Below, in pieces: positions 1 to 34,167 of a stretch of DNA of 64,000 bases. The stretch lies in NCBI GenBank assembly GCA_000092065.1, contig CP000591.1. One strand, given 5' to 3'. A model generated the notes under the pieces. That model was not told the origin of the DNA, made no database searches, and worked only from the letters and a program-made list of their open reading frames with translations. Each line of letters opens with the position of its first letter. Positions within the stretch are counted from its first letter, which is position 1. The stretch comes from Ostreococcus lucimarinus. Its lineage: Eukaryota. The translations under genes and the position numbers were made by a program.

Positions 1-486
1 GCTTATGCTCAGCGTCTTCTTCCTCCCCGCCCTGTGCGCGCGCGCGTCGTCCCCCTCGTCCCCGCTCTCTCGCGCGAACTCTCCTCCCGCGCTCCCTCGT
101 CCGAAACCAAAGCTAAAATTACTCTCTCTCCACGCCCGCTCCACCTCGCTCGAAAAGTGTCGATGGTGCCTATCCACCGCCGCGCGCAGCGCGTCCACGT
201 TGAACACCCCATCCTGCCCCGCCGCGCCCTGGCTCGTCGCCCGCGCGCGCTCGCGACCCAACCCCGCGTCCGTTCGTTCGCCCTTCACCGCGCCGCTTCT
301 TCGCTCGACGTCCGTCTCGCGCGTCGTCGTCGTCGTCGTCGTCGCCGCCGCGCGCGCCTTATCGCGTCGGCTCGCGTCGTCGCCGTCCCGGCCCCGTCCC
401 GCGTCGCGCATCCGCGCCGTCGCGACGCCCCGCGCGCGAAAACCGTCGCGTTTTCGCGCGTCGCGTCGTTCGCGTCGTCCTTCGTC

Positions 487-523
<37 letters not shown>

Positions 524-849
524 GTGCGAATGCGTGAATGAACGAATGAATCTCTTCGTCGCGTCGCCGTCTCGCGCGCACGCGGACTCGCGGCGCCGCG
601 TCGCGCCCCGCCGTCGCGCCCGTGCCTACGCGCCGCGTCCGCGACGACGCGCGCGTCGGCGTGTGCGGCCGCGGTGAATCGATTCGAATCGTAAAGATTC
701 GCGAAAACACGCGCGCGGCGTCACATCGCGACGCGCGCGCGCCGGCGAAGCCGCGCGTCGACTCGACGTCGGACCGCGCGCGCGCGACGTCGCGGGACGA
801 CGCGCGCGCGACGCGGCGGCGCCGAACGACGCGTCGGAAGATTTAAAAG

Positions 850-3702
850 ATGCGCGGAAACAGATGCGCGGCGACGGCGCGCGCGACGGACGATCTGGGC
901 GCGCGAACGGCGGCGGCGGTGTGCGATGACGATCCGTTCGCGTTCGGGGCGCGCGCGCGGGCGCTGTTCGAGGACATCGACGGGGAGACGCTGGCGGAGG
1001 ACGACGACGACGACGACGACGACGCGAGACGCGGCGACGCGCGAAGGATCGGTCGGGGGGTGAGCGTGTTCGAGAAGGTGCGACGGGAGAAGGCGGGGAC
1101 GACGATGACGGCGACGACGGCGACGACGGCGACGGCGACGGCGACGGCGGAGGAAGAGGAAGAGGACGCGTTCGACGAGCCGAGGGCGAAGGCGAAGGCG
1201 AACGCGAAGAAGCCGGCGAAGGCGAAGGCGGGACGCGAGAGAGCGAGGGAAAAGACCGCGCGGGACGGCGGTGATGACGACGTGATGGTCGTGGACGACG
1301 ACGTCGGGGAGTGCGCGAGGCCGGCGGAGGATTTGTTTGACGAAGTCGCGGCGACGGGCGATAAGCGCGCGAAACGCGAGGTGAAGACGCTGGCGCGGCC
1401 GAAGAAGCGCGTCGTGGAGGCGCCGGCGGCGGTGGTCGAGACGCATGCGGTGATGCCGGCGCCGTCGGCGCGCGCGAAGGCGTCGACGACGGGGCGAATC
1501 CGGGCGTCGACGTCCGCCGCGGCGTCGGCGCCGCCGCCCGCGAAGAAGAAGAAGGTGTCGCTCAAGGAGTTCGCCGGGGAAGAAGACGGCGACGAGGGAG
1601 GGTTCGACGACGGCGAAGGCGACGACGACCACGGTCTGGTGCCGCAATCGGGCGCGCAGTTGGCGGACATCGATGAGGCCAACTACGCGGTGTCGGGGTT
1701 GTCCACCGTGAGGGACGTCAAGGAGAAGATGCGGTGCGTCGGCGTCTTGGCCAATTTGATGGGTAATCAGCGCACGCGCAGGCTGTTGGCGTCGTACGGC
1801 ATACCGATGAAGATCATCAAGGCTGCGCAAGACGCCGCGATGGCGCCGCACGCGCCCAATGCGTTGAAGTTTGGCGCCGCGGCGCTGTTGTATCTCGCCG
1901 CGAGCGATTTGCGGGCGCCCGCGACGGACGCGATGCGCAGCGTCAAGTCGGCGAACGCGATTCGCGCTTTGCTCCGTCCAGCGAGTTCGAGCGATGACGC
2001 GCTGTACTTGAAAACCGCCAACACGGTTCGCTCGGCGTTGAAGGCGTTGAAGTTTTTGCCGAACGAGGCCAAGGACGCGCCGACGCTCGCGCTCCTCGTC
2101 GCGCATCAAACGCTCAAGGGTGAGCAGGACGCCGTGCTCGCCTCGGGATCGGGTCCGGGCGCGGGTGACGTTGAAAATAGCTTCCGAACGATTTTGGCGA
2201 ATCAAGGCGCGGTGCTCGCGACGTGTGAACTCGTCGCGCAAGCCACGACGACGTTGAGCAAATTCGGCGGCGCGTGTTTCGTCGCGTCGGCGTCGGCATC
2301 GACGAACGATAGCGTTGACGACGAGTCCACGATCGAGGAGTACGAACAGAGTGCCGCGCGCGTGATCGCGCGTCTGTTCCGCGCGTCGCGTGTGCTCGAG
2401 TGTGTGAGCTTTGAATCGCCAGCCGCGTGCGCGGTGATTTCGACCTCGGCGCTTGGCGGATCGAAGAGAGACGACACGAACGCCGATGTGCGCCCTCTCG
2501 ACTTGCTCGCCGTGTCCACGACGCGCCTGGCGCCGGAAGACGGTCTGAACTCGTCGCGTGGCGATGGGAGAGGGGTTGAATCCGCGACGACGACGGCGGC
2601 GATTGATATCCCGTCGCCTTCGCCCGTCAAATCACGCATCCCGGGTGGAATCACGATGACCCCGCCGAGCACGCCCGGCGCGGTGCGCGTCGCTGGAACA
2701 TCCTACGACGACAACGATGGTTTAACCCCGCTTTCGTCTCCTGTACCGATCGGGTTGATGCAAACAGCCGCGACGCGAGACAACGCGGCAGCGATTCAGT
2801 GGTTGGCGGATAACGTGCGCACCCCCGTGAAGGGTGGATCGCACAACGCGCGAACGGCGTGTCGAGCACTCGTGGAGGCGCTTCCGACGCTTGCGGCGGC
2901 GACGACGGCGTCGGTCGTAGGCGCGAAGAAAGGAGACGTCGTGCAAGGCATCGAGATTCGTTACAACGCCGCCATCGCCGTCGACCACCGCGTCGCCGTC
3001 GGCGCGTTGAAATCCGCGTTGTGCACGCTGACGAACGTGACGAACGAGAATAAGGAGGGTTGTGACGCCGTCGTTGGGGAAGATAGTCGTGGATTACTCG
3101 TCATCGCGAGTTTAATTCCCTGGTTGGCGTTATCGATTGAAGGATTCACGCTTCGCGACGCGAAGGAGCGCAAGCGCACCCGAACGCCGACGGATGATTC
3201 CGGATCGTCACTCTTGAATGCCGCGCTGGTGTTGCTCGTCAACATCGTCGAAGCAGATGCGACGACGGCAGATGTCCTGCGCAACGCAATGGTGCGCTTA
3301 CCGGGCGACTCGTCTCGAGGCGCGTCCTTCGTCGAAGCGCTCACGATGTTGTACCTGCAGTCGGGCGGCGCCGACGAAGACGAAGACGAGGGCGAAAAAG
3401 AGACGGCCGAGGAGGCGCAACATCTCACGGCGGACATGATTAAATCTTACTCGTCGAAAACCAACGGCGACGATTTGATCTTACAGGCGTACTGCGGATT
3501 GTTGCTCGCGTTTTTGATCGAAGACGACGCCGCGTTGCGCGCCGAAGTCACGTCGACGTTTCCCGAAAAGCCGCAAGGCACTTCGCGTCTCAAGCCGTTG
3601 GCCGACACCCTCGAGCGTTTCCACGCGTTTCACGAGAGTTTGAATAGCATCTCTGCCGCGTCCAGCGAGCGACTGGTAAAGGTGGTGACCTGGCTCCGAT
3701 GA
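850..3702 (+). CDS. WAPL-like protein (possible cohesin release factor) with a long acidic, low-complexity N-terminal region
   Basis: 950-aa ORF. The C-terminal segment DDLILQAYCGLLLAFLIEDD...LERFHAFHESLN follows the pattern of the WAPL C-terminus (ASYTALLLGCL...KKFLSFMNL). Alpha-solenoid-like repeats lie upstream. Similarity is judged from memory and not verified. Confidence 0.4.
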   Translation: MRGNRCAATARATDDLGARTAAAVCDDDPFAFGARARALFEDIDGETLAEDDDDDDDDARRGDARRIGRGVSVFEKVRREKAGTTMTATTATTATATATAEEEEEDAFDEPRAKAKANAKKPAKAKAGRERAREKTARDGGDDDVMVVDDDVGECARPAEDLFDEVAATGDKRAKREVKTLARPKKRVVEAPAAVVETHAVMPAPSARAKASTTGRIRASTSAAASAPPPAKKKKVSLKEFAGEEDGDEGGFDDGEGDDDHGLVPQSGAQLADIDEANYAVSGLSTVRDVKEKMRCVGVLANLMGNQRTRRLLASYGIPMKIIKAAQDAAMAPHAPNALKFGAAALLYLAASDLRAPATDAMRSVKSANAIRALLRPASSSDDALYLKTANTVRSALKALKFLPNEAKDAPTLALLVAHQTLKGEQDAVLASGSGPGAGDVENSFRTILANQGAVLATCELVAQATTTLSKFGGACFVASASASTNDSVDDESTIEEYEQSAARVIARLFRASRVLECVSFESPAACAVISTSALGGSKRDDTNADVRPLDLLAVSTTRLAPEDGLNSSRGDGRGVESATTTAAIDIPSPSPVKSRIPGGITMTPPSTPGAVRVAGTSYDDNDGLTPLSSPVPIGLMQTAATRDNAAAIQWLADNVRTPVKGGSHNARTACRALVEALPTLAAATTASVVGAKKGDVVQGIEIRYNAAIAVDHRVAVGALKSALCTLTNVTNENKEGCDAVVGEDSRGLLVIASLIPWLALSIEGFTLRDAKERKRTRTPTDDSGSSLLNAALVLLVNIVEADATTADVLRNAMVRLPGDSSRGASFVEALTMLYLQSGGADEDEDEGEKETAEEAQHLTADMIKSYSSKTNGDDLILQAYCGLLLAFLIEDDAALRAEVTSTFPEKPQGTSRLKPLADTLERFHAFHESLNSISAASSERLVKVVTWLR

Positions 3703-3866
3703 CGAGACGATTTCGACGCCGATCGCGTAGCCGTGTGCGTTTTCTTGTGATAAAAATGAAACATCGTCGCCTTCGAAGACGACGCGGAGTGGTGCGATGC
3801 AAGCAAGGCAGTGCTTTTTCTTGTGCGCAGCTCGTAAAAAAACTTTTGCTCGCCAAAAGAGAAGTC

Positions 3867-3982
3867 GTGACCCAGGCAGGAGTCGAACCCGCAACCTTCA
3901 GATAACTTCAACGGCGTCCTCGCGTTCGCGAGGAGACTCTCGAATCACTGGAGTCTGACGCACTACCATTGTGCTACCGAGC
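3867..3982 (-). tRNA. tRNA-Trp (anticodon CCA) with a roughly 44-nt intron between positions 37 and 38
   Basis: The reverse complement reads GGCTCGG-TA-GCAC-AATGGTA-GTGC-G-TCAGA-CTCCAG[intron]A-TCTGA-AGGTT-GCGGG-TTCGACT-CCTGC-CTGGGTC-A. This closely matches eukaryotic tRNA-Trp (GTCTGACTCCAGATCAGAAGGTTGCG). The intron sits at the canonical position. Confidence 0.7.
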
Positions 3983-4612
3983 CATACATATTAAAGACAC
4001 ATTTAAGTCCATATGATATGACTAAATGAGCGATAAACTCCAATTAATGCGCCCTCTCGCGGGGATCGCACATGTGTTACGGGCGCGTCGACGCGCGACG
4101 CGTCGCGCGCGAATTCGCGGTCCACGTTCGCGCGCGCCGCACACTCCGCACGGATCTCTCACCCCCACCACACCTCTCGAGCGCGTTCCGCCCTCGTACG
4201 GTCGATAAAACGCACGCAGTTTTATCGTTTCATCGTTTCATCGCAGTTCAGGTGCGGGATTCGCGCGCGCGCGCGAGAAGGACGACATCGGGCGACACCG
4301 CGGGATTCGCGCGAGGGGTCGGTCGCGTCGCGCGGTGGATGCGCGACGCGACGCGGCGCGACGCGACGCGAATCCTCGTCGCGGTCGCGCGCGCGCGGGT
4401 TCGGCGATACGTTTTCGTCGACGTCGAACGCGCGCGCGAGGACGCGCGCGAAACGATCGACGAGGCGCGCGCGCGTCGATCGAACGCGACGAGGATTCGA
4501 GGGCGAGATAAAGATGGGAGCGAAGGCGGGAGCGAAGGCGGGAGCGAGCGAGCGAACGACTGACGCGATCGATCGTCGCGCCTGATGTAGACTACGAACA
4601 CACAGAAGAAGA

Positions 4613-4819
4613 ATGCCCGGCACGCAATCGGTATACGTCTCGCTGTCCATCCTCGCCCTGACGGGACTCGTCGGGACCGGGGTCGCCATCGGCTCGGGCG
4701 TGTCCATGATGTCCATGGCCATGGTCGAGGAAGAGCAAAAGCAGCAAGCGGTCGTGGCTTCCGTGAAGGAGGCGTCGGCGCGCGTGCCGTCTCGCGGTTT
4801 CGCCGCGAGCGGTAACTAG
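4613..4819 (+). CDS. hypothetical small membrane protein with a glycine-zipper TM helix
   Basis: 68-aa ORF in a lower-GC patch. It has a hydrophobic GLVGTGVAIGSGVSMM segment of GxxxG/GxGxG type followed by a charged tail. It may continue by splicing (GTAACT follows the stop). Very tentative. Confidence 0.2.
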   Translation: MPGTQSVYVSLSILALTGLVGTGVAIGSGVSMMSMAMVEEEQKQQAVVASVKEASARVPSRGFAASGN

Positions 4820-5014
4820 ACGGCCCGCCGTCGGTAAACATGTACCTACCGCCTTCACTTCCGGACGTCTCAAATCCGCCGTTCGTCGTGTTCGATACAT
4901 TCTTCACCTCCATCGTGTACCCGTAAAAGTTACTCACTTTCCTGATCTGTAATAAAAAGAAGCGGATGATGAAATATTAATTACACAAGTTTGTTTCGCG
5001 GTTTATTTCACTGC

Positions 5015-6946
5015 TTACTTGATTTTCATGACGTCCACGCGCGTGCGCTTGGCGACGTCGTGCGGGTGCGATTCGCCGTCGTCTTGTCCATCCGTCGTCG
5101 GGTGCACGACGATTTTCGCCAAGCCGCCGCCGACGGCGCCGCGCGCCAATCGACCGGGGTTGACGCACACGACGCCGTCGATGTCTTCGGCGAATGTTTT
5201 CAAGTCACTCGGCATGATCAACACGTCCGGGGTTTGCTTAAACGTCAGATCCTCGCCGTAACGCGCGTCCAAGCACGCCGACGCGTCCGGCGGGTACAGC
5301 GGGTACGCGCAGCCTTGCGTCAAGACGTGCTTGGCGAGACGCGCGAGGCGGTCTTTGGGCACGAATCCCTTGGAGATTTCTTGTGCGCTCAGATGCTTCA
5401 ACACGTCGTGCGAGCACGCGGAAAACACGATGCCGTTGATGGTGAACGTCCCGGGATTCGAGGCGGAGAACGCGCGCTTGGCGCGCGCCGCGTCGGCGCT
5501 CACGTACGCGTCGAGCGACGCCGCGGGTTGCGGGAACACGGGATCGAGCGTCACGTCGCGGATGCTCGGGACGAAGATCACTTTCGTGCGGATCGTCTCG
5601 TCCTTGAAGAGCTTGTCTTCAATCTTATCCACCACAACCTTGGCCACTTCGTCGTACGTCAACCCCCCGCACTCGGCGCGCTTGACAAAGGCGTTTTCGG
5701 CGTCCACGAGCGGGCCACACAAAACCAACGCGTCGGGATTTTCTTCGCGCACGTAATCCAACATATCGTTCAATGGCTCGTACTTCAAATCGCTCGAGCA
5801 CGAGAACGGCCCGCTGGCGACGATGACTTTCGTCCCTCTCGCGAACGCCGGCGACGTCTTTTTCGAACGCGCGGGCGCTCGCGCGGAGACGGCGTCGATG
5901 GATTTCGCCACCAAGCAGTGCCCCGCGGGGTTGCGCCCGCACACCTTGACGACTTGTCCCGGGAACAAGCTGTACTCTTTCATGTCGCGAAGCTCCAAGC
6001 GCACGCGCGCGCCGAACGAACCCTCGGTCGAGCCCTCGATGGCGACGGTTTTCTCCGTCAACTTGGCGTCGCCGGCGTGCGCGCTCACCACGCGCCCGAC
6101 AAAGTGTCCATCTTCGTCGCCAGTCTTTGACCCCACGGCGGAGACGCGCACGACGTCGGACGCCGAAGTCGTCGTCTGCGTCGCCTCGGTCGCCTTGACG
6201 TCCTCGTCGTCGTCCGCGTCGCCCAAAACCTCGAACAAATTCTCCGCGTCTCGAATGCGCTCGTCGACGACGCGCACGCGGTCGGAGATCCTATCCCGCA
6301 TGTATCGAAATTTGTCCGCGCTCACGATTTGCGTCATCGACACTTCGCTCTCTTCCGCGTCGTCCCGTTTCACCACGTCGCTTCCCAAGTGCGCGTTCAT
6401 CACCGTCCCCGCGCCGCCGTCGCTCCGACTCGCCAAACTCCCCGCGCTCCCCGGCGTCGCCGCGCGTTTCGCGTACTCACTCGTCTGCTCCCCCCCCACC
6501 GCGTTCAGCGCCTCCGACCACTCCCTCTTACTCCGCATCGGCGTTTTATACGTCCCCGTCGACGTCGATTCGCGTCTATCGCCACCCTTCGCGCTCGCCG
6601 GCGTCGTCGGCGTCGTCGGCGTCCCGCCCCGTCGTCGTTTTCTTCCGAATTCGCTCGTTTTCTGCGCCGTTTTCGTCGCGCTCTGCGATTCGCGCTGTTG
6701 TTTCCACGTCATCGCGAATCGTTCGAACGTTTCGATGCGCTCGATCGCGACGCTCTGGCGGTCTCGCGCGTCGAGCGTGTTCGAGAGTTCTAAATCAAAC
6801 ATCACCCAGCAGTCGGCGAGATCTTTCGACGTGAACGACAGCGCGCGCGCGACCGACGCGAGCGCGTCGCGGGCGACGTCGCTCGGGACGTCGAAGCCGT
6901 GCTCTTCGAAGCGCTCGCGGATGTCGGGCGGGAGGGCGGTCGTCAT
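5015..6946 (-). CDS. POLA2: DNA polymerase alpha subunit B (POLA2/Pol12)
   Basis: N-terminal domain followed by a calcineurin-like phosphoesterase domain with IVASGPF, LVLCGPLVD, KVIFVPSIRDV and VLIMPSDL motifs. Start taken at MTTALPPDIRERFEEHGF (ATG at 6946). The ORF-track extension to 7552 overlaps UGM in another frame and is run-through. Confidence 0.85.
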   Translation of the reverse strand: MTTALPPDIRERFEEHGFDVPSDVARDALASVARALSFTSKDLADCWVMFDLELSNTLDARDRQSVAIERIETFERFAMTWKQQRESQSATKTAQKTSEFGRKRRRGGTPTTPTTPASAKGGDRRESTSTGTYKTPMRSKREWSEALNAVGGEQTSEYAKRAATPGSAGSLASRSDGGAGTVMNAHLGSDVVKRDDAEESEVSMTQIVSADKFRYMRDRISDRVRVVDERIRDAENLFEVLGDADDDEDVKATEATQTTTSASDVVRVSAVGSKTGDEDGHFVGRVVSAHAGDAKLTEKTVAIEGSTEGSFGARVRLELRDMKEYSLFPGQVVKVCGRNPAGHCLVAKSIDAVSARAPARSKKTSPAFARGTKVIVASGPFSCSSDLKYEPLNDMLDYVREENPDALVLCGPLVDAENAFVKRAECGGLTYDEVAKVVVDKIEDKLFKDETIRTKVIFVPSIRDVTLDPVFPQPAASLDAYVSADAARAKRAFSASNPGTFTINGIVFSACSHDVLKHLSAQEISKGFVPKDRLARLAKHVLTQGCAYPLYPPDASACLDARYGEDLTFKQTPDVLIMPSDLKTFAEDIDGVVCVNPGRLARGAVGGGLAKIVVHPTTDGQDDGESHPHDVAKRTRVDVMKIK

Positions 6947-7068
6947 GGCGCGCGACGGCGTGTGGCGATCGCGCGGCGAGGCGTTTGAAAATTTAAAATC
7001 CGAGCTGTCGGGGGTGTACGAACGCGCGACGACGCGACGCGACGCGAAGCGCGCGGAATCGCGATCGA

Positions 7069-8433
7069 TCACTTCGGGCCGTCGCCCTCGCCCAGGACGG
7101 TCTTTTGGCGCTTCGCGTCGCGCGCGTCGCCGACGCTGAAGACGTCGTCGAAGGTTTCGAGCGCGTTTAAAAACGCCTGGTCCATGTTGAAGTACTTGTA
7201 ACTCGCGAGGCGGCCGACGAAGACGACGCCGGGCTCTTTCGCCGCCATGTCGCGGTACTTTTCGTATAACTCGCGGTTGGCGGGGTTGGGAACGGGGTAA
7301 TACGGCTCGCCGTGATCGCACGAGTACTCTTTGAAGACGACGGTGCCCGCGTGCTCGCGCGCCTCGCGCGGCTGGTTGGGCTTGTGCTTGTACTCGACGA
7401 CGCGCGTGTGCTCGACTTCCGGACCGGGGTAGTTGAGCTGTAAGCACGGTTGGTAGAAGAATGGTTTCGTTTTGTCCTCGCCCTCGTGGTACTCTTCGAA
7501 GAAACGCAGACTTCGGTACTCGAGCTTGGGCAAACCTTGAGACGCGTACCACGCGTCGATGGGGCCGGTGAAGACGACGAACTTTCGCGCCTTGCTTCTC
7601 AACATGTCTTTGTGCTCAAAAAAGTCGGTGTTCAGGCGCACGGTGATGTTCGGATCGCCCATGATCATATTTTCGAAAATCCTCGTGTACCCGTGCTTCG
7701 GCAACGCTTGGTGCGGATCGCTAAAGTACCTATCGTCGACGTCTTCGCGCACGGGTATCCTCGCCAAGACGCTCGCGTCCAGCTCCTCGGGGTACTTATC
7801 CCACTGCTTCTTCGTGTAATGCTTAAATATCGCCTCGTACAGCTCCGCCCCCGCCCTCGTCAGCGCGCTCTCTTCTCCGTTCTTCGGATTCTCGTTCACC
7901 GACCGTCTGGCGTCCAACCATCTTCGCGCGTCCTCGTCCGTCTTCAAATCCGCCTCGGGAAACAGCGCGTTGATCGTGTCCCTGTTCGGCGGCACCCCCA
8001 CGATTCGGTACCGCCTCCCCCCGTGTTCGTACTCCCCGTCCTCGCGCTCGATCGCCGCCTTCACTCGGTGTTCGTACGGCGTCCACTCGCTGAATCGATT
8101 CACGTATTCCCACACCCGCGCGTGCTTCGTGTGAAACAAGTGCACGCCGTACTGCGACACCCTGAACCCCTTCGCGTTCACGAAGTCGTAGCAGTTCCCG
8201 CCGACGTGATCGCGCTTGTCCACGAGAAGCGTCTTCATCCCGAGCTCTCGCGACGCGCGGCTCGCGAAGACGCAGCCCGAGATGCCGGCGCCGACGACGA
8301 CGAGGTCGAACTCGCGGTCGCGAATCCGCGCGTCGCTCGCGACGCCGGCGAACCAGCTCGGATCGTGGTCGTTGCCGCGACGGACGGAGACGTCCACGCC
8401 CGCCCACTCGTCGGCGTCGGCGCGCGCGCGCAT
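7069..8433 (-). CDS. UGM: UDP-galactopyranose mutase
   Basis: FAD-binding DLVVVGAGISGCVFA motif. The segments YTKKQWDKYPEELDASVLARIPV and PYYPVPNPANRELYEKY are typical of eukaryotic UGM (Glf). Start taken at MRARADADEW (8433). The upstream 208 aa of the track ORF are repeat and run-through. Confidence 0.85.
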   Translation of the reverse strand: MRARADADEWAGVDVSVRRGNDHDPSWFAGVASDARIRDREFDLVVVGAGISGCVFASRASRELGMKTLLVDKRDHVGGNCYDFVNAKGFRVSQYGVHLFHTKHARVWEYVNRFSEWTPYEHRVKAAIEREDGEYEHGGRRYRIVGVPPNRDTINALFPEADLKTDEDARRWLDARRSVNENPKNGEESALTRAGAELYEAIFKHYTKKQWDKYPEELDASVLARIPVREDVDDRYFSDPHQALPKHGYTRIFENMIMGDPNITVRLNTDFFEHKDMLRSKARKFVVFTGPIDAWYASQGLPKLEYRSLRFFEEYHEGEDKTKPFFYQPCLQLNYPGPEVEHTRVVEYKHKPNQPREAREHAGTVVFKEYSCDHGEPYYPVPNPANRELYEKYRDMAAKEPGVVFVGRLASYKYFNMDQAFLNALETFDDVFSVGDARDAKRQKTVLGEGDGPK

Positions 8434-8648
8434 GGCGACGCGACGCGGCGCGGTGTGCGGCGGAGCGGTCGGACGTCGGCGAACGACGACCGGTCGGCGA
8501 CGACCGCGGCGTCGCGCGCGACGTCGAGCGACGGCGCGCGCGCGTCGGCGCGTCGTCGACGTCGCGTCGGCGCGCGCTCTCGCGCCGTCGCGCGTCGCGT
8601 CGGGACACCGCGACGGCGTGAAGAGTCGAATCGTCACTTCGGCGCGCC

Positions 8649-8661
8649 ATGGGCGCCGCGC

Positions 8662-8723
<62 letters not shown>

Positions 8724-9467
8724 CCGCGCGACGCCGCGCGCGCGTCGTCGTCGCCGCCGGACGACGACGCGCCGACGCTCGCGCGCGCGCGCGAGGACGA
8801 CGCGACGCTGCGAACGAGCGAACCGTTGTTGACGCCGCGCGTGGCGCGCGCGCTGCGAGCGCGCGTCGAGCCGAGGGCGGGCGCGGTGACGTGGACGCGC
8901 GCGTTCGATTCGCGCGCGTGCGGATTGGCGAGTCTTCGTCGCGTCGTCGAGCGGTGCGCGGGCGTCGGACGCGCGCTCGTGCTCGTGCAACCCGAGGCGG
9001 CGGACGAGGCCGAGGCCGAGGACGAGGACGAGGCGTACTACGTCGCGCACGTCTCACCGGGTTTCCAAGCGAAGCCTCGGCACGATTTCCACGGCGACGA
9101 CGCGTGCAAGACGTTTCGCGTCGACGGAAAACGCGGCGTCGTCGTCGACACGTCCGGGGTCTCCGTCGCGCCGCTGTATTGCGCGTACGGCTACTCCCGA
9201 CACGGCGACGTCGTCAACGGGTTCGGGATGTTCGGTAAGATCGGGCGCCACGCCTTATTCGTGGACGCCGCCCTGGAAAACGCGCACGCGGACTTCGGCG
9301 CGCGTCGCTTCTCCGTGCGTCGCGTCGAAGTCTGGGCGCTTGAGGCGCGCGCGCCCGGAATCGACGCCGGCGCTTCGCCGCGCGCGGCGACGCGCGATCG
9401 AGCGACGATGGCGCAGTTTACGTCATCCGCGATCGCCCGCGACGTCCTCGACGCCACGACCGGCTGA
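8649..9467 (+). CDS. hypothetical protein whose C-terminal approximately 96 aa are duplicated downstream at 11611-11904
   Basis: 272-aa ORF. The N-terminus is low-complexity (MGAAPSSPSS..., possible MGxxxS myristoylation motif). A globular-looking region (AYYVAHVSPGFQAKPRHDFHGDD...GFGMFGKIGRHALFVDAALENAHADFG) spans the repeat boundary at 9175. No family recognised. Confidence 0.4.
8651..8726. repeat. (GTCGTCGCC)n microsatellite, about 8 units, in the divergent UGM / 8649-gene promoter and 5-prime region
   Basis: Direct reading. It translates as SPSSPSS on the plus strand and TTATTATT on the minus strand inside two different ORF extensions. Confidence 0.6.
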
Positions 9468-10119
9468 CATCAAGACCGCGACGGAACGTCGAGGAAAGAT
9501 CTCGTCGACGCGCTGTTTCGCGAGTGCGGCGGACCAGAAGGTGTGGGAGGCGCTGACGGATACGCGCGGCGTACGAGGCGACGTTCGCGGCGATTGAGGA
9601 CGCGCGTCGCGCGAGATAGATGATAGATTGATACTAGATAGATCTGATGCAGCTCCTAGGCAGTCTCCTACGCGGTAGGAGACCTTGTTGTAACATACGA
9701 TGTACGACGGATCCAAAAAGTGCGAGCACGTCACCGTCGACGACCCGTCCTCGAGCGCGCGAGCGCGACGCGCCGTTTTCAGTGACAAAAAAGAATGGCA
9801 ACTTTGTTACCTCACCGGGATTCGAACCCGAGTCTGTTCGTGGAAGCGCGTGGCGTGTCCGTCAGTGTCGCGTTCACAATTTTTGGTGTCAACGTGTCCG
9901 TTCGCGTGTTCACGTGCGATGGGCGCGAAGATGCGTAGAATACGTACCTCTAGGGTGAAAGCCTAGCGTGATAACCATCTACACTATGAAGTACCGCTCG
10001 ACCCCGCAAGGGGCCGCAGCGATCGATCTCTCCGATGTTTCGGAGTTCACGGGATGTACTCATGTTTCAGCTCGTCCACACTTTCGTGTGGCTAGATAGA
10101 GATGTGTGCGGCTTGACAC
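9175..10119. repeat. Copy 1 of a 945-bp direct repeat (segment A)
   Basis: Identical at the ORF-translation level in three frames to 11612-12556, with a constant offset of 2437 bp. Starts TGTATTGCG and ends GCTTGACA(C). Contains an ENY2-like gene fragment, a hairpin and a tRNA-like fragment. Confidence 0.8.
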
Positions 10120-10359
10120 GACGACGAGGTCGAACTCGCGGTCGCGAATCCGCGCGTCGCTCGCGACGCGGCGTCGTCGCGCGTCGTCGCTCGCGGGTGC
10201 GCGCGCGGCGCCATCACCGCGCGCCGCGAAGTGACGACGCCCGCGCCGCTCAGGAAAAATTTATATATCGCCCCTTTAGAGAGTACCTACACACATGACG
10301 AGTCATGAACCAAGGATGCGGGGAGATCTCGCCGTCGGCGCCACTCGTCGCCGCATACG

Positions 10360-11376
10360 ATGACCGATTCAGTCGCGCACGCCTCACCGACGTGGAGAAC
10401 GTACTCATTAGACCCGTCGCTGCAACCGGACTGGATGAACGGCACGGCGGAGGTAGAGGCGGTCAAAACAGCGGAGGATGAACTCGAGCGCTCGTACAAG
10501 AACAAGCCATTCTTCAAGAACACAAGCTACGAGGCATTCGCCAGAAAACGAGGCGAGTATGATAAACCGACGCCCGACGGCCTCGAGGAGTTCAAGCGTC
10601 TCCTACGGGCGAGTTATCTTCGCACCGTAGAGCGCATCGATGAAGATACCCAAGTTCTGGAAGCCCAGCTACAAGACGAGAATATCTCTGAAACGCGACG
10701 GTCGGTTATCCCGCAGCACATCGAGGACACTCGTGCGAAATTAAAAGAGCAAGACAATTCATTGAACGCGCTGTGCGCCGATGTGGATGCGGTTATCGCA
10801 GATTTGAAAGGCTTGCCCGATAAAATTGCCGACATAAAAGAACACGCCTCTGAACAACTTCAGCAACACAAAAGAAAAAGAACCAGTATATCTTTGGAAC
10901 GCAACCTCGAGGAGCTGAGCGATGCGCTGCGCAGCTACGAGGCGAAAAAAGAACAGGAGAGGCTCACAATTACCGATTATCGTGGGAAATATGGGTCATG
11001 TCCATCCCAGTATGTTCGCCAGACCGCCTGGGCACGCAGACCTTCTGGTCGTGAAGAAATTAGCTTCATTGTTCATCCTGTGGGTGTCATTGGCTGCGAT
11101 GGCAGTAACCTGAGCGTTGATGGACGTGTTTCGATTGATGGTTATGGTGAGTTTAACGTACCAAAATGGCAGCCTGAATGGGGACCTGAGAAGCAAATGT
11201 GTGCGTGCGAATGCTTCCAAGAGTGGTACAAAGTCGACGCCCAAGACCTTCTTTACAGCGCGCTTCGTGGCGTAGAGGGCGCGCTAAAGGCGCTCAGTGG
11301 TTCGGGAGATGACACGTCTTCGCTTCGACGGCGCTTGGGCGATGCCAATTTGGACGAAGCAAGCACGGGGAGTTAA
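10360..11376 (+). CDS. hypothetical coiled-coil protein, a compositional outlier at about 50% GC
   Basis: 338-aa intact ATG-initiated ORF with codon usage unlike the neighbouring genes. It has a Lys/Glu-rich predicted coiled-coil middle and a Cys/Trp-containing C-terminal region. Lies inside segment B between the two repeat copies. No family recognised. Confidence 0.45.
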   Translation: MTDSVAHASPTWRTYSLDPSLQPDWMNGTAEVEAVKTAEDELERSYKNKPFFKNTSYEAFARKRGEYDKPTPDGLEEFKRLLRASYLRTVERIDEDTQVLEAQLQDENISETRRSVIPQHIEDTRAKLKEQDNSLNALCADVDAVIADLKGLPDKIADIKEHASEQLQQHKRKRTSISLERNLEELSDALRSYEAKKEQERLTITDYRGKYGSCPSQYVRQTAWARRPSGREEISFIVHPVGVIGCDGSNLSVDGRVSIDGYGEFNVPKWQPEWGPEKQMCACECFQEWYKVDAQDLLYSALRGVEGALKALSGSGDDTSSLRRRLGDANLDEASTGS

Positions 11377-11410
11377 TATATGTGGACGTATATTTTGTTG
11401 TCCACGAATG

Positions 11411-11447
<37 letters not shown>

Positions 11448-11611
11448 CGCCTCCAGTCTCGACACAGTATCACTGAGTTCACTGCGAAGTTCGTCGATTT
11501 GCTGATCTCTCGAGGCAACGGCGGCCTCTAAATCGGCGATTTGAGCGTCGTGCTCGACGATTCTTTCGTGCAGCTCCTGGTTTGACTTGACGAGCACAGG
11601 AATGATTTGAG

Positions 11612-12556
11612 TGTATTGCGCGTACGGCTACTCCCGACACGGCGACGTCGTCAACGGGTTCGGGATGTTCGGTAAGATCGGGCGCCACGCCTTATTCGTG
11701 GACGCCGCCCTGGAAAACGCGCACGCGGACTTCGGCGCGCGTCGCTTCTCCGTGCGTCGCGTCGAAGTCTGGGCGCTTGAGGCGCGCGCGCCCGGAATCG
11801 ACGCCGGCGCTTCGCCGCGCGCGGCGACGCGCGATCGAGCGACGATGGCGCAGTTTACGTCATCCGCGATCGCCCGCGACGTCCTCGACGCCACGACCGG
11901 CTGACATCAAGACCGCGACGGAACGTCGAGGAAAGATCTCGTCGACGCGCTGTTTCGCGAGTGCGGCGGACCAGAAGGTGTGGGAGGCGCTGACGGATAC
12001 GCGCGGCGTACGAGGCGACGTTCGCGGCGATTGAGGACGCGCGTCGCGCGAGATAGATGATAGATTGATACTAGATAGATCTGATGCAGCTCCTAGGCAG
12101 TCTCCTACGCGGTAGGAGACCTTGTTGTAACATACGATGTACGACGGATCCAAAAAGTGCGAGCACGTCACCGTCGACGACCCGTCCTCGAGCGCGCGAG
12201 CGCGACGCGCCGTTTTCAGTGACAAAAAAGAATGGCAACTTTGTTACCTCACCGGGATTCGAACCCGAGTCTGTTCGTGGAAGCGCGTGGCGTGTCCGTC
12301 AGTGTCGCGTTCACAATTTTTGGTGTCAACGTGTCCGTTCGCGTGTTCACGTGCGATGGGCGCGAAGATGCGTAGAATACGTACCTCTAGGGTGAAAGCC
12401 TAGCGTGATAACCATCTACACTATGAAGTACCGCTCGACCCCGCAAGGGGCCGCAGCGATCGATCTCTCCGATGTTTCGGAGTTCACGGGATGTACTCAT
12501 GTTTCAGCTCGTCCACACTTTCGTGTGGCTAGATAGAGATGTGTGCGGCTTGACAC
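11612..12556. repeat. Copy 2 of the 945-bp direct repeat (segment A-prime)
   Basis: Same sequence as 9175-10119. The duplicated ORFs 11611-11904, 11628-11894, 11777-12034, 11860-12225, 12084-12395 and 12137-12403 are identical to their copy-1 counterparts. Confidence 0.8.
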
Positions 12557-12700
12557 CGCACATCTGATGAATGACTGTGCGCTAAACTTTTTCACCCAGA
12601 AATCGCGTCGACGGACGCGCGAATGTTACGGTCGGGCGTGACGTGTTTTCGCACGCCGCGCGCCGCGCGTCGTCGCGTTCGTCGCATTCCGCACTTCGCG

Positions 12701-14101
12701 ATGCCGCCGCGAAAGCGCGCGCGCGAGGCTTCGGGCGACCCGGTCGAAACAGAGGAGGGTTCAGCGCGCGCTCGGGATTCGACCGAACCGCCGTCGACCA
12801 CCGCGCCGTCGGCGCCGTGCCCGTACCTGGACACGGTGAACCTCGCGAACCTGGATTTTGACTTTGAGAAGCGGTGCGCGGTGTCGCTGTCGCCCGTGCA
12901 CGTGTACGCGTGCTTGGTCTGCGGCAAGTACTTCGCGGGACGAGGAAAGAAGACGCACGCGTACGCGCACGCGCTGGAGTGCGGACATCACGTGTTCATG
13001 CGCCTGGCCGACGGCGCGGCGTGGTGCCTGCCGGATGGGTACGAGGTGGTGGACGAAGGGACGACGCTGTCGAGGATTCGAGACGTGCTCGCGCCGACGT
13101 ACGCGAAAAAGTACGTGGAGGAAGAGATCGAGGGCGCGCGACCGATGTGGCGGCGCGCGCTGGACGGCACGGAGTTTCTCGTCGGCGTCGTCGGATTGAA
13201 CGCGATTTGGAGCAAACGCGACGACGGCGTGAGCGCGGTGCTGCAATCGCTGAACAGAGTGGCGCCGCTGCGGCGCGCGCTGTTGCTCGACGACGCGAGG
13301 GAACGCGAGGACGTCTATCGCGCCTTGGCGGACATCACGAAGAAGATTTGGAACGCGCGAAATTTTAAAGGTCACTCGAGCCCGCACGAGTTCATGCAAG
13401 CGGTTCGAAATCGATCGAAAGACGCGTTCGGCGCGGAGACGGGGAACCACGACGCCGCGCAGTTCTTGCGTTGGTTGCTCAACGAATTGATTCGCGACGA
13501 AAAGAAACGCGGCGAAAAGCGATCCGTCATTCAGTCGTGTTTCCAGGGAGAAGTGGAAATCATCGACGATTCGTCCGCGTCGCGCGCGTCGCCGTTCCTC
13601 ATGCTCTCGATGGACCTCCCGAACGCGCCGCTGTTTCAAGACGTCATGGAGAAGAACATCATCCCGCAAGTCTCCCTCGAGCGCGCGCTGCTGAAGAAAT
13701 TCGACGGCGTCACCGCGGACCCCAAGACGCGGCGCAGGTTCAAGATCACCAAGCTCCCAAACTACTTGATCGTGAATTATTCGCGCTTCACCAAGAACAA
13801 CTTCTTCGTCGAAAAGAACCCGACCATCGTGACGTTTCCGACGCGGGGGCTGAACCTCGCCGATCACATCCCGGTGCCGAGAGGGGACGAAAATTCGGCG
13901 ACGTACGATTTGATCGCCAACATCGTGCACGACGGCGCGCCCGACGACGGGTCGTATCGCGCCATGGTGTACCACGCGCCGGATAAAAATTGGTACGAGA
14001 CGCAGGATTTGCGCGTCGCCGAGGTGTTGCCGCAACAAGTCAACCTCACGGAGACGTACGTGCAGATTTACGAGCGTCGAGACAAGCGACGAGACGCGTA
14101 G
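12701..14101 (+). CDS. USP39: U4/U6.U5 tri-snRNP-associated protein 2 (USP39/Sad1), an inactive UBP-type hydrolase
   Basis: ZnF-UBP region (CPYLDTVNLANLDFDFEKRCAVSLS...YACLVCGKYFAGRGKKTHAYAHALECGHHVFM) followed by a UCH-like domain (GLNAIWSKRDDGVSAVLQSLNRV ... YDLIANIVHDG). ATG taken at 12701 (MPPRKRARE). Confidence 0.8.
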   Translation: MPPRKRAREASGDPVETEEGSARARDSTEPPSTTAPSAPCPYLDTVNLANLDFDFEKRCAVSLSPVHVYACLVCGKYFAGRGKKTHAYAHALECGHHVFMRLADGAAWCLPDGYEVVDEGTTLSRIRDVLAPTYAKKYVEEEIEGARPMWRRALDGTEFLVGVVGLNAIWSKRDDGVSAVLQSLNRVAPLRRALLLDDAREREDVYRALADITKKIWNARNFKGHSSPHEFMQAVRNRSKDAFGAETGNHDAAQFLRWLLNELIRDEKKRGEKRSVIQSCFQGEVEIIDDSSASRASPFLMLSMDLPNAPLFQDVMEKNIIPQVSLERALLKKFDGVTADPKTRRRFKITKLPNYLIVNYSRFTKNNFFVEKNPTIVTFPTRGLNLADHIPVPRGDENSATYDLIANIVHDGAPDDGSYRAMVYHAPDKNWYETQDLRVAEVLPQQVNLTETYVQIYERRDKRRDA

Positions 14102-14202
14102 GACTCGAAAACCACATTTAGAATAATAATAGAAAACAAACGTCTCGCGATGACGAATACAACGAATACAAATACAATACACACGTCGCGCGTCGACGGA
14201 CG

Positions 14203-14216
14203 CTAATCGCCCTCGC

Positions 14217-14247
<31 letters not shown>

Positions 14248-14985
14248 CCACCCGAGCGCTTCCATCGCGTTCGCGAGCTCCGCCTCGAGCACGGGCGCGT
14301 CCGCCGCGCGCGCCGCCGCGCTGTTCTCCACCGTCGCGTGATCCACCGCGCTCCGCATCGAATACATCACCCGCCACTCCAACGCCCAAGCGTCCACGGG
14401 TCCGAACGACCGCGAGTCCTCGTGTCTCCCCGCGCTCTTCGCCGAATCCGTCTCCGCGTCCGCGTCCGCCGTCACCCACGCGTGATCCTTCGGCACCACG
14501 TACACGCTCGCGTTCGCCGCGTCCACGAGTTCGTCGCCCTCCGTCGCGCTCACGCGTCGTATCAGCGTTCGCGTCGCGTCGCTCGGGTGCGCGAACGCCA
14601 CCACGTCCCCGATCGCGGCGCTCCGAAACGGGTGCGCCAGCCTTCGCGCGAGCACGTACTCCGTCCCGGATCCTCCTCGCGCGCTCGACGGTCCCGGCGC
14701 GTCGCGCGCGCCGCCGCGCAGCGTCGGCGTCATCGCGTCGCCGCGAAACGCGAACACGCGCGTCATCGCGTCCTCGCCGATCGCGCGCACCGCCTCGGCG
14801 AGCGGCGCGCGCGGCGCGCGCGGCGCCGTCGTCGGGTCGTCGTCGTCGTCGTCGTCGTCGTCGACGTCGCGCGAGCGCGCGGTCGCGGCGACGGGGCGCG
14901 CGGCGGCGGACGACGCGGCGACGAGGGCGGGGACGAAGAGCGTCATGATTCGCTCCCAGTGGTACGACAGGCGGAGGGCGCCCAT
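14203..14985 (-). CDS. mitochondrial inner membrane protease (IMP1/IMP2, S26 signal peptidase I) homologue with a substituted catalytic dyad
   Basis: Collinear with IMP2: RGDAMTPTL versus GASMQPSL, GDVVAF...LIRRVSATEGDEL versus GDIVSL...IIKRVIALEGDIV, and HEDSRSFGPV versus SFDSNSFGPV. Ser is replaced by Ala in the first motif and Lys by Arg in the second, read directly from the DNA. Confidence 0.6.
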
Positions 14986-15115
14986 GACGGGCGTCGGCGC
15001 GTCGACGAGTGGCGCGGGCGCGGCGCGAGCGGGCTCGATCGGCGCGTACCGCTGTCTGTGAAACGTGGCTAATGATTCGCGACGATCTCGAACGTCGAGT
15101 CCTAAACGCTAGGTT

Positions 15116-16915
15116 TTAATTCGCGGTTTCGTCCGCCGTCGCGTCGATCGCGCGATCCTCGATGCGCTTTTCGCGGCGATTCCACTGGGCGCGGTCGCGC
15201 GCGGCGAGGAGCAAAGGTATCTCCGGCGGAACGGGCGCGTCGCGCCTGACGAAGCAATCGCCCATGAACTCTTTCTCTTGTTCGTCTTTGCACGACACGC
15301 GCTGGAGGAAATCGAGCGGTGATCGCGGCACGCCGGTTTCGTGGTGCTTCGAGCGAAACCGCGCGGCTTCGATGTAGGCGCCAAAGTCGCCGTGTTTGAC
15401 GCCGAGAAGATCGGCGTCGGAGGAGCATCCGCCCATTTTATCGGCTTTGGGGAACACGGTGGGGCCTTTGGCGAGCACCGCGCACAGGCCAACCTTGATG
15501 TCCGTGCTTTGCACTCGCAAGAGCTTGCGGAAGCCGGGAGACCACGTGCTCGGATGATCGTACCGCCAACTCGTGTACTCGTTGTACCTCGACTCATCGC
15601 TCGCGATCGCCTCGAGCTCGGCCGCGAGCGCCTCGAAGCTATCGTAGTCGCGCAAATCAATGTATGATTTCTTCGTCGGCATGAGCTCGGTGAACGAATC
15701 GTGACCAGTGTATATCGGAATCGAGCCGCGGGCGAGCGCCATCCACACCTTCTCCGTCATGTACCCTTGGCACATCGGTGCGTTCTCCACGGCGAAATAA
15801 AACATGTAGCGCGCCATCTTACTCTGATACTCCAGGTTTTCCACCCCGCGGCCGGGCAAGTTGCGCGGCAAGTGGTAGTTATTGAAGCAATTCCCCATGG
15901 AAAACGTCGGAAAGTGTTCGGCGAGACCGACGACGATGCCGGGTCGCGGAGGAAGGCAATCGATGGCGATCCAAGCCACCGCGGGAATCCTCTCCGAGTG
16001 AGGAATCGTGTACGCGGGGAAATCTTCCGCCATCGAATCCAGCGACGGGCCGAACGGCCACCAAATAGCCGACCGTTTCTGATCGAAATACCCGACGTAA
16101 TCGAACTCTCTGACGACTTTCGGGTTTTGCAAATCCTTCCCAAAAGTCGCCACGGCTTCGTGCGCCATGTACACGTCCACCTGACCCGGGTCTATCTTTG
16201 CAGGTTTCGCGTACGAACCGTCTTTCCCTTTATTCTTGCCGCGCCACAAGTACCCCGATTGACTAAACACTCTCACGTCGGCTCTCTTGTCGCCGTCGCA
16301 TCCGATGACGACCTTCTCCACGCACGCGCCGGGAGTGAACAACCTTCCGAACCCTTTCACGTAGGTCGAGTCCCAGGCATCCGCCGGCATGTCCACGCAC
16401 ATCGTGAACCCGGTCTCCGAGCGCGTCACCGCCGGCGCGTGCGCGTACGACGACACGTCGACGTCGGCGTCGTAGCCTCGAAACGCGTCCGGCAGATACG
16501 CGTGCCGAATCGGATCCAACGCCGCCGCCACCGCGAGCTGATCCACCTTCCCGTGCGCGTTCCTGTAGTACGCCTGCGCGATCATCGCCTTCCGAGTCGC
16601 CCTCGCGTCGCCGAGCTTCGCCGCGCTCGCGCCGAGACCGCCGTCTCGCGTCGCCGCCGCCGCCGCGCCGATCGCCGCGCACGCCGCCAGCGCGCCCGCC
16701 CCGACCCGCGCCCGCGTCCACCGTCCGCCGCGCCTCGCGTCGCCGGCGTCGCCGCCGCCGCCGTCGCCTCGCGCGCGCGTCGCGTTCGCCGTCGTCGTCG
16801 TCGCGCGCTCGACGTCGTCGAGGTGTTGACGCCATCCTTCGTCATCCGTCGCCGTCGCGCGCGCGCGCGTCAGCAGGGACGCGCGCTCGGCGCTCGCCGT
16901 CGACGCCGTCGGCAT
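15116..16915 (-). CDS. alpha-1,3/4-fucosyltransferase (glycosyltransferase family 10), type II membrane protein
   Basis: GT10 signature YMFYFAVENAPMCQGYMTEKVWMALARGSIPIYTG (compare YKFYLAFENS..DYVTEKLW). N-terminal hydrophobic anchor GAGALAACAAIGAAAAA. Confidence 0.75.
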   Translation of the reverse strand: MPTASTASAERASLLTRARATATDDEGWRQHLDDVERATTTTANATRARGDGGGGDAGDARRGGRWTRARVGAGALAACAAIGAAAAATRDGGLGASAAKLGDARATRKAMIAQAYYRNAHGKVDQLAVAAALDPIRHAYLPDAFRGYDADVDVSSYAHAPAVTRSETGFTMCVDMPADAWDSTYVKGFGRLFTPGACVEKVVIGCDGDKRADVRVFSQSGYLWRGKNKGKDGSYAKPAKIDPGQVDVYMAHEAVATFGKDLQNPKVVREFDYVGYFDQKRSAIWWPFGPSLDSMAEDFPAYTIPHSERIPAVAWIAIDCLPPRPGIVVGLAEHFPTFSMGNCFNNYHLPRNLPGRGVENLEYQSKMARYMFYFAVENAPMCQGYMTEKVWMALARGSIPIYTGHDSFTELMPTKKSYIDLRDYDSFEALAAELEAIASDESRYNEYTSWRYDHPSTWSPGFRKLLRVQSTDIKVGLCAVLAKGPTVFPKADKMGGCSSDADLLGVKHGDFGAYIEAARFRSKHHETGVPRSPLDFLQRVSCKDEQEKEFMGDCFVRRDAPVPPEIPLLLAARDRAQWNRREKRIEDRAIDATADETAN

Positions 16916-18491: not shown

Positions 18492-18875
18492 ATGCCTCGC
18501 CCCACCCCCGCGCCGCCGCCGCCGCCGGCGGCGCGCGACGTCGACGTCGAGCGCGACGCGCTCACCGCGATGCGCAAAGACGGCACGCTCGACGCCCTGC
18601 GCGCGCGCGCGGTCGAGCGCGTTCGCGCGGACCCAGAGATGAAAACCTTCACGGAATTCGCGGCGCGCGCGTCGCAGACGCTGCGCGACCCGCGAGCGAG
18701 GCGCGCGTCGAGGAAAGATCTCGTCGACGCGCTGTTTCACGAGTGCGGCGGACAGATTTTGAAGCAGGCGGACCAGAAGGTGTGGGAGGCGCTGACGGAT
18801 ACGCGCGACGAACTCGGCCGCGCGGCGTACGAGGCGACGTTCGCGGCGATGGAGGACGCGCGTCGCGCGAGATAG
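18492..18875 (+). CDS. ENY2/Sus1-like small protein (SAGA/TREX-2 subunit)
   Basis: 127 aa. ...PEMKTFTEFAARAS...DLVDALFHECGGQILKQADQKVWEALTD follows the ENY2 pattern (LKAHCKEVIKEKG...[26 protein letters not shown]). Degenerate partial copies of its 3-prime end occur at about 9490-9650 and 11927-12087. Confidence 0.4.
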   Translation: MPRPTPAPPPPPAARDVDVERDALTAMRKDGTLDALRARAVERVRADPEMKTFTEFAARASQTLRDPRARRASRKDLVDALFHECGGQILKQADQKVWEALTDTRDELGRAAYEATFAAMEDARRAR

Positions 18876-19157
18876 ATACCGATAGATAATAGATTGATAA
18901 TACATAGATCTGATGTAGCTGATGCCGCCGCCGTCGCGTCGGACGGATCGCCTCGGTCGCCTTCGGTTCGCTTCTCGGCGGCGGCCGCCGACGCGGACGC
19001 CGCCGCGCGTCGCGGTCGTCATGCGCGCGGTTGTGCGGCGACGATTTATTTTACGCCGCGCGACGGGCGAGCGACGCCGGCGAATCGAGCGACGCTGAAT
19101 GCCCGTACGCTGGAATCGCGCGCGAACGCTGACGCGACGATTCGTCCGAGTGGGTGG

Positions 19158-25308: not shown

Positions 25309-25554
25309 GACGCGAGTCCCCTCCGATCGACGAGTGCTGACCCACGAACACGTATTTAAGCCACAAAACGCCACTGTAATCGAACCGCGCGACGCGAGTC
25401 CCCTCCGATCGACGAGTGCTGACCCATAAACACGTATTTAAGCCACAAAACGCCCGCGTAATCGAACCGCGCGACGCGAGTCCCCTCCGATCGACGAGTG
25501 CTGACCCACGAACACGTATTTAAGTCACAAAACGCCCGTGTAATCGAACCGCGC
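25309..25554. repeat. Tandem repeat of 3 x 82 bp, each unit containing a TATTTAAG motif
   Basis: Direct reading. The unit is GACGCGAGTCCCCTCCGATCGACGAGTGCTGACCCACGAACACGTATTTAAGCCACAAAACGCC...ATCGAACCGCGC, with a few substitutions between copies. It lies between the DJ-1 start (25259) and exon 1 of the VDAC-like gene (25796). Confidence 0.8.
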
Positions 25555-34138: not shown

Positions 34139-34167
34139 TTTAATGCTACGTAATGCTATTTCTAAAG

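Follow-up and report, generated by a model that had tools for sequence, protein, structure and literature searches.

A 945-nt direct duplication with a composite low-GC filler in Ostreococcus lucimarinus: anatomy, single-copy ancestor and a possible origin by template switching

How a stretch of host DNA came to stand twice, without a single mismatch, on either side of a low-GC filler is the question raised by positions 9175-12556 of a 64,000-nt window of Ostreococcus lucimarinus DNA (the window being the whole stretch analysed, from contig CP000591.1 of assembly GCA_000092065.1). The two copies, A (9175-10119) and A' (11612-12556), each measure 945 nt and lie in direct orientation around a composite filler, B (10120-11611). 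Their limits were set by following the match outward at an unchanging offset of 2437 bp, which is also the length added relative to a locus with a single A. The sequences outside all four ends of A and A' are unrelated, and a match of 945 nt cannot be due to chance. The filler is probably, if by no means securely, the product of microhomology-mediated template switching of the kind termed microhomology-mediated break-induced replication (MMBIR) or fork stalling and template switching (FoSTeS). This would have taken two steps or more, with homologous recombination and gene conversion coming afterwards.

The duplication and its single-copy ancestor

The duplication is derived from an ancestral allele with a single A. 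Among the loci fetched for comparison (cited by L numbers), a 70-kb metagenome contig (L012) aligns to positions 1-10119 (96.6%) and 11612-16186 (99.1%) of the window with a single A between the upstream flank P (8649-9174) and the downstream flank Y, and another metagenome relative (L013, ~95% identical) likewise has a single A in the order P-A-Y. The order of genes on chromosome 11 of O. tauri is DNA polymerase alpha B subunit, UDP-galactopyranose mutase (UGM), TLDc-domain protein, tRNA-Glu, USP39. From the two empty sites and this synteny it follows that P-A-Y is the ancestral state and that the extra 2437 bp are derived. The insertion disrupts no host gene and has cost no host sequence; the net gain is a second tRNA-Glu gene, an extra copy of an open reading frame of the filler (ORF338) and a dead TLDc fragment. 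The gene order shared with O. tauri chromosome 11, the 81% protein identity of ORF338 to its O. tauri homologue and the composition indicate that the window belongs to a nuclear chromosome of Ostreococcus.

A begins within the TLDc gene, at codon 176, so that the last 97 codons are inside A. The product matches Pfam TLD at residues 56-231 with an E-value of 5.8e-4, below the gathering cut-off, and homologues at 41-45% identity, one of them the annotated O. tauri TLDc protein, align without a break through the P/A boundary (from residue 6 to residue 221 of ORF residues 50-272). The P/A junction is therefore the original one, and what A' has of the gene is a dead fragment (ORF 11611-11904). Base composition differs along the locus: B has 54% GC overall (52% in its 1358-nt core, 72-81% in its first 134 nt), A 60%, P 75%, Y 64% and the window 62% on average. 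The features of the locus are as follows.

8294-8345, plus strand: X, the 52-nt source segment, an exact repeat copied to 10118-10169
8649-9467, plus strand: TLDc-domain gene, 272 aa (Pfam TLD; homologues align across P/A)
9175-10119, plus strand: A, first copy of the duplicated host segment, 100% identical to 11612-12556
9807-9993, minus strand: tRNA-Glu gene (anticodon UUC), interrupted (Rfam RF00005)
10118-10169, plus strand: X', exact copy of 8294-8345, overlapping the end of A by 2 nt
10170-10216, plus strand: jl, 47-nt filler of 81% GC, seen only in the context X'-jl-rc37
10217-10253, plus strand: rc37, inverted 37-nt flank of the cassette, recognised by comparison with L001, L003 and L006
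10254-11611, plus strand: core of B, a low-GC cassette copy of 1358 nt (10310-11615 equals L001 9951-11256)
10360-11376, plus strand: ORF338, an intact gene with 49 homologues
11436-11615, minus strand: truncated 3' tail (60 codons) of a gene convergent to ORF338, found by tblastn with the partner ORF of L001 (ORF102)
11612-12556, plus strand: A', second copy, with a truncated TLDc ORF (11611-11904) and a tRNA-Glu gene (12244-12430, minus strand)
12557-12675, plus strand: start of Y, upstream of the USP39-like gene, with two further population breakpoints inside

An initial annotation, made from the window alone, had described A and A' as 945 bp at 100% identity and an offset of 2437 bp, with A beginning inside gene 8649-9467 and A' carrying a truncated copy of it, and all of this is borne out by the match extension, the TLDc alignments and ORF 11611-11904; its contrast of about 50% GC in B with about 70% in the flanks holds only approximately. 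It was right on the structure, but overlooked the tRNA-Glu gene in A, the 52-nt copy of 8294-8345 and the composite make-up of B. Its proposal that A was duplicated with templated DNA at the junction agrees with the template in cis at 8294-8345 and with the 100%-identical cassette copy and its flank in a 48%-GC region on contig L001. It had also suggested looking in relatives for P-A-Y without B-A', the arrangement of L012, L013 and the O. tauri gene order.

Templates, junctions and the origin of the filler

A template was found for 1447 of the 1492 nt of B. After A come, in order, 52 nt from the UGM gene on the same strand (X'), the 47-nt jl, the inverted 37 nt (rc37) and the 1358-nt cassette in forward orientation. 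The source of X' is the 5' coding part of the minus-strand UGM gene (~7069-8400, Pfam GLF 6.4e-68), 1.8 kb upstream of X'; the similarity of X and X' can also be aligned as 57 nt at 98% with one gap. The segment rc37 is the reverse complement of 37 nt that lie 3' of the right end of the full-length cassette in L001, L003 and L006. Starting within the core, 10310-11615 (1306 nt aligned) is 100% identical to L001 9951-11256. The full-length cassette of L001 has 79 more nucleotides upstream of ORF338, which the window copy lacks (at 10309/10310), and a 102-codon partner ORF, and the right end of the window copy is cut short. In L001 the cassette adjoins 9.8 kb of left context at 48% GC with SMP_LBD, MCM, XPG and DDE_Tnp_4 genes. 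No source for jl was found in the window or in any fetched locus; it occurs only beside X' and rc37 (in the window, L003-L006, L032, L033 and L037).

Microhomology can be assessed at three of the junctions, the other two adjoining the template-less jl. X' shares 2 nt (AC, read from the sequence) with the end of A; the last 6 nt of rc37 (GCTCAG) are identical to the 6 nt that precede the left end of the cassette in L001; and the cassette sequence runs 4 nt (TGTA) into A'.

Probes of 50 nt across each junction, allowing at most two mismatches, were counted in other metagenome contigs. The P/A junction was found in 6 of these contigs, A/X', X'/jl and jl/rc37 in 7 each, rc37/B in 3, B/A' in 9 and A/Y in 8. 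With all seven junctions present in 3-9 independent contigs, none of them is a private assembly error. Individual contigs follow the paths P-A-X'-B (L004, L005) and B-A'-Y-USP39 (L031, L034), and L033 reads A-X'-B-A'-Y-USP39 on one scaffold. The filler is therefore truly joined to both ends of A in nature.

Besides the empty and single-insertion forms, natural populations have other arrangements of the locus. L003 and L006 share A/X', X'/jl and jl/rc37 and then enter the cassette in the opposite (native) orientation. L004, L032, L033 and L037 read B-A-X'-B, which is compatible with arrays of at least two units, with circles or with assembler loops. In L001 and L002 the 37-nt flank of the cassette is joined to an inverted Y-A-P at an 11-nt GC-rich word that has 10 occurrences in the window, L030 joins a third left context to B-A-Y, and L035 leaves Y at ~12675 for unrelated sequence. 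The breakpoints within Y are at 12657-12667 (L001/L002) and ~12675 (L035). In all, ~1.07 kb of the empty site takes in four population breakpoints, and upstream of the tRNA gene three of these occur within 120 bp.

A different insertion, of 2.2 kb, occupies the interval between TLDc and tRNA-Glu in O. tauri (L040 7544-9798, CAID01000011.2); it has ORFs of 569 and 178 aa with weak, sub-threshold matches to GIY-YIG and SWIM zinc-finger domains. The suggestion of the initial annotation that the locus is a hotspot of structural variation is supported by this insertion and by the empty, insertion-bearing, possibly multi-copy and three other rearranged forms.

The A copies are identical to each other in every array-type contig, and A in other close relatives, carrying the cassette or a near-identical empty site, differs by a TGT indel and a few substitutions, ~1% in total at most. 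Since A varies so little among close relatives, the identity of A and A' does not date the event as very recent, and zero differences are unremarkable for a variant that has segregated for some time. The choice between a very recent event and an assembly artefact, as first put forward, is thus a false one, given this low variation and the presence of the junctions in independent assemblies. The B copies attached to A' differ by ~1% or more between samples in a block-like pattern, and such mosaic alleles suggest gene conversion from other members of the cassette family.

The anatomy of the locus, the empty site, the identity of the donor, the microhomologies and the polymorphism in populations are direct observations. 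They can be accommodated in a replication-based scheme, of which the mechanism, the succession of steps and the part played by the tRNA gene are inferred. A replication fork would have broken or stalled near the tRNA gene, and repair by template switching would have made the filler. A tRNA gene is a plausible fork barrier, and the one in A may plausibly have made the site prone to breakage. After A, synthesis would have switched at AC into the UGM segment 1.8 kb upstream, on the same strand, for 52 nt; the 47-nt jl would have followed, and then 37 nt copied in inverted orientation from the far flank of the cassette. A switch at GCTCAG would have led into 1358 nt of cassette copied forward from its near end, and one at TGTA back to the first base of A, which would then have been copied as A'. 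At least two steps are called for, because L003 and L006 share three junctions with the window but enter the cassette in the opposite orientation; tentatively, the order would run from an L001-type through an L003-type to the window-type arrangement. The direct repeats and the multi-copy cassette would then permit homologous recombination and gene conversion, producing copy-number variants and mosaic B alleles. Of the two kinds of repair named in the initial annotation, MMBIR/FoSTeS fits the templates and the microhomologies of 2, 4 and 6 nt, but polymerase-theta-type repair alone does not fit a templated piece of 1.36 kb.

Several points weigh against template switching as the whole explanation. 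The mechanism is read from junction anatomy only, and microhomology of 2-6 nt would also fit alternative end joining; the 47-nt jl has no template among the sequences searched. The 26-37-nt piece is itself filler from an earlier event, so that it is uncertain how many switches the final event comprised, and with three junctions shared by L003 and L006, a single event of several switches would leave part of the picture unexplained. Finally, the comparison contigs are all metagenomic and mostly from short reads, which cannot phase across the 945-bp repeat, and the case for integration, as opposed to an empty locus together with a free circle of 2.4 kb, rests on the assembly of the window itself.

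Other origins are taken here in falling order of probability. Integration of the Campbell type, in which a circle containing A and the filler enters by a single crossover at the chromosomal A, or unequal crossing-over from an existing array, is unlikely. A single crossover with a circle would give exactly A-filler-A, the four contigs with B-A-X'-B read as circles or arrays would, and the A copies in every array-type contig are identical. The change in copy number is all that it explains, however, since the original joining of A to filler and the microhomologies at its junctions would still need an origin; an assembler looping twice would also give B-A-X'-B.

Capture of a pre-formed linear mosaic at a staggered break, with nicks 945 bp apart filled in and end-joined, would make A and A' a very long target-site duplication. 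This is rather improbable. The duplication does flank the insert exactly, and alternative end joining could leave microhomologies as short as the 2 and 4 nt of the outer junctions, but the free fragment would already have to be a mosaic of four parts, among them a piece of the UGM gene, 1.8 kb distant, and the flank of the cassette in inverted orientation, and the recurrence of three internal junctions in the L003/L006 arrangement suggests a chromosomal intermediate.

That the cassette is a self-moving element, for example by alternative or aberrant transposition, a process known to yield composite insertions as well as direct duplications in tandem, is very unlikely. ORF338 has a different neighbourhood in each lineage, three left contexts meet the cassette within 0-6 nt of one base, an inverted repeat of 45-48 nt is present in L015, and the lineage of the window has its 37-nt sequence inverted at the opposite end of the cassette. 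Against these, ORF338 and its partner have neither a transposase nor a recombinase domain, no target-site duplication is visible, and inverted repeats are absent at the other 13 loci tested; moreover, the cassette ends on the right at a breakpoint within a longer gene, and the boundaries vary between lineages, with no ends in common.

Little credence can be given to an assembly artefact, in which a single A was walked as a repeat loop or an empty locus was merged with an episome or a second locus. The perfect identity of the copies, the inability of short reads to phase 945 bp and the 70-kb empty-site contig L012 would be in keeping with it, but the unique junctions A/X', rc37/B and B/A' occur in 3-9 independent contigs from several projects, and L033 carries A-X'-B-A'-Y-USP39 on one scaffold.

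A small non-autonomous long terminal repeat (LTR) retroelement or terminal-repeat retrotransposon in miniature (TRIM), with A and A' as LTRs and B internal, for which the identical direct repeats, the TG at the start of A, the CA at 10117-10118 and the CCGC at 9171-9174 and 12556-12559 might be cited, is refuted by the nature of A, which is the conserved TLDc C-terminus contiguous with P plus a host tRNA gene at the position conserved in O. tauri; B occurs elsewhere without A in such an arrangement, CCGC is a common word in GC-rich DNA, and neither a primer-binding site in the UGM-derived sequence after A (GACGACGAGG...) nor a polypurine tract before A' (...AGGAATGATTTGAG) was found.

The ORF338 cassette and the host genes around it

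The intact gene in the filler belongs to a family so far known only in Ostreococcus and marine metagenome sequences, with 49 homologues including one in O. tauri at 81% identity. Its product has a long coiled coil (residues 30-204, modelled with high pLDDT by AlphaFold, the model being confident for the coiled coil only), conserves His, Cys and Trp residues in its C-terminal region, and has no match in Pfam and no significant match among PDB sequences. Its GC at third codon positions (GC3) is 0.56, against 0.82-0.88 for the neighbouring genes. A viral origin of B was considered and set aside: a scan of IMG/VR combining patterns and tblastn, which detects close relatives only, gave no relative of ORF338.

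The gene convergent to ORF338 has 102 codons in the full-length cassette of L001 and 973 codons in L022 of a sister lineage (5489-8410, minus strand). Thus, the right end of the full-length cassette is an older breakpoint, and the 102-codon ORF is a 3' fragment. The 973-codon product has a C-terminal coiled coil and scores 26.5 bits as a whole protein against Peptidase_S74 (endosialidase chaperone; cut-off 22), although no single stretch passes.

The neighbourhood of ORF338 differs in every lineage sampled, and three unrelated left contexts reach the cassette within 0-6 nt of the same base. In L015, which is 95% identical to B of the window, the ORF338 unit is flanked by a near-perfect inverted repeat of 45-48 nt (122-169 and 1632-1679) with no obvious target-site duplication; this locus is the exception, flanking inverted repeats being absent at 13 of the 14 cassette loci tested. 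No flanking direct duplications were found at other cassette loci, and neither ORF338 nor its partner contains a transposase or recombinase domain. Helitron, hAT and circle-junction readings of the cassette ends were rejected, as the end sequences do not fit them.

It might be suggested, as a doubtful proposition, that the ORF338 cassette is an unrecognised mobile gene cassette of the Mamiellales, copied time and again from a low-GC outlier compartment to ordinary chromosomes by a copy-and-paste route without transposase-type ends. Such a route, if real, would have as its traces long duplications of host DNA and inverted pieces of the cassette's own flank (rc37 in the window, the 45-48-nt repeat in L015), and would explain the changing neighbourhoods and the meeting of unrelated contexts at nearly the same base. 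With its outlier-type composition and shifting location, this family is the part of the locus most worth following up.

Telomere-like sequences occur near several members of the family. On the chromosome 9 contig of O. tauri, 2.6 kb separate the copy (L007 1-3661) from the terminal (CCCTAAA)11, telomere-type motifs (TAGGGTTTAG) lie 50-200 nt upstream of the ORF338 start in several lineages (L019, L022, L028, L032), and further telomere-like sites are found near homologues at L017 1289-1570 and at about 8221 of L008. The motifs may be subtelomeric relics or promoter telo-boxes. A subtelomeric family was considered but not adopted as a reading, many cassette copies being at least 8 kb from any contig end.

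The tRNA-Glu gene within A matches Rfam RF00005 with 41.5 bits (gathering score 29), and ARAGORN found no tRNA in A. The gene, with anticodon UUC, is interrupted in the variable-loop region by an insert of ~113 nt (116 nt in L012) that starts with GTACGT and ends with ACAG. Its orthologue at the syntenic position in O. tauri (L040 10217-10289) is an uninterrupted 73 nt. Compared with O. tauri, the acceptor stem has two double changes that compensate each other and so preserve its pairing, an indication that the interrupted tRNA-Glu gene is still functional, with the insert removed. An element integrated at a tRNA attachment site was also considered and discarded, because B has no integrase and the tRNA in A is interrupted according to Rfam and missed by ARAGORN.

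Between the TLDc stop codon and the tRNA gene, 9487-9654 repeats in decayed form the 3' end of the ORF at 18492-18875 and what lies downstream of it (matching 18706-18920 in blocks at 92-98% identity, with two deletions of 20 and 17 nt). The patch is kept in all copies of A, those of the empty-site contigs included, and represents earlier templated patching of this locus. At the other end of the TLDc gene, about 8 units of a 9-nt repeat (GCCGTCGTC, 8650-8735) encode an (SSP)n N-terminus; an inverted counterpart, 87-90% complementary, is found at 1089-1149, and many similar GAC/GTC-rich runs are scattered across the window.

Downstream, the USP39-like gene (12623-14101) encodes Pfam zf-UBP and UCH domains, and a signal-peptidase-like protein is also encoded near the duplication. 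A look-up of the exact TLDc and USP39 products of the window returned no record. Tandem repeats elsewhere in the window are at 25309-25559 (82-nt unit, 3 copies, 94-97%), 47964-48207 (122-nt unit, 2 copies, 99% identity) and 56921-57423 (36-nt unit, ~14 copies). GC falls to 0.52-0.57 at 32000-44000 and 56000-60000, against the mean of 0.62, and these stretches may be further outlier-type or inserted DNA; a single telomere-type heptamer stands at 42017.

Significance and comparison with known systems

The locus offers a duplication with a multi-template filler, dissected in a very compact haploid eukaryote, for which the empty allele, the donor copy and the sister rearrangements all come from ocean metagenomes. 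Low-GC DNA of the outlier type has been copied into an ordinary chromosome with every gene left intact, and one tRNA-Glu gene has become two; O. tauri, the best-studied species of Ostreococcus, has only 48 tRNA genes. The interval from TLDc through the tRNA gene to USP39 is a site of recurrent rearrangement across the genus. Short-read assemblies around the ORF338 cassette are mosaic, which calls for caution in the population genomics of picophytoplankton.

Among known systems, the hypervariable low-GC outlier chromosomes of the Mamiellales, of which Ostreococcus has a big and a small one, resemble the cassette in composition (52% GC, GC3 0.56), and a 100%-identical copy lies in a 48%-GC region beside a DDE_Tnp_4 gene; the insertion in the window is instead in a normal 62%-GC region syntenic with O. 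tauri chromosome 11. Alternative transposition of Ac/Ds in maize is similar in the direct duplication of host DNA flanking a mobile insert and in inversions of element-adjacent DNA, whereas in the lineage of the window the cassette showed neither a transposase nor terminal inverted repeats nor target-site duplications. End joining by polymerase theta is similar in its microhomology and in the short patch (52 nt) taken from the same chromosome near the break. Templated inserts of polymerase theta are usually tens of nucleotides long and copied from the immediate flanks, and the 1358-nt copy from another locus does not fit them.

The complex duplications attributed to FoSTeS/MMBIR in human genomic disorders, yeast and cancer share with the window the direct duplication, the serial use of templates both near in cis and distant, one inverted segment, junction microhomology of 2-6 nt and the loss of no gene. 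The present case differs in that dependence on replication is putative, that at least two separate steps were apparently involved, that one 47-nt piece has no known template, and that the variant is found segregating in the wild, in a haploid picoalga, and not as a new mutation of a pedigree or tumour. Among known kinds, the locus thus comes nearest to the complex duplication with templated junction insertions, of which the window presents a natural picoalgal case and a fairly ordinary variant.

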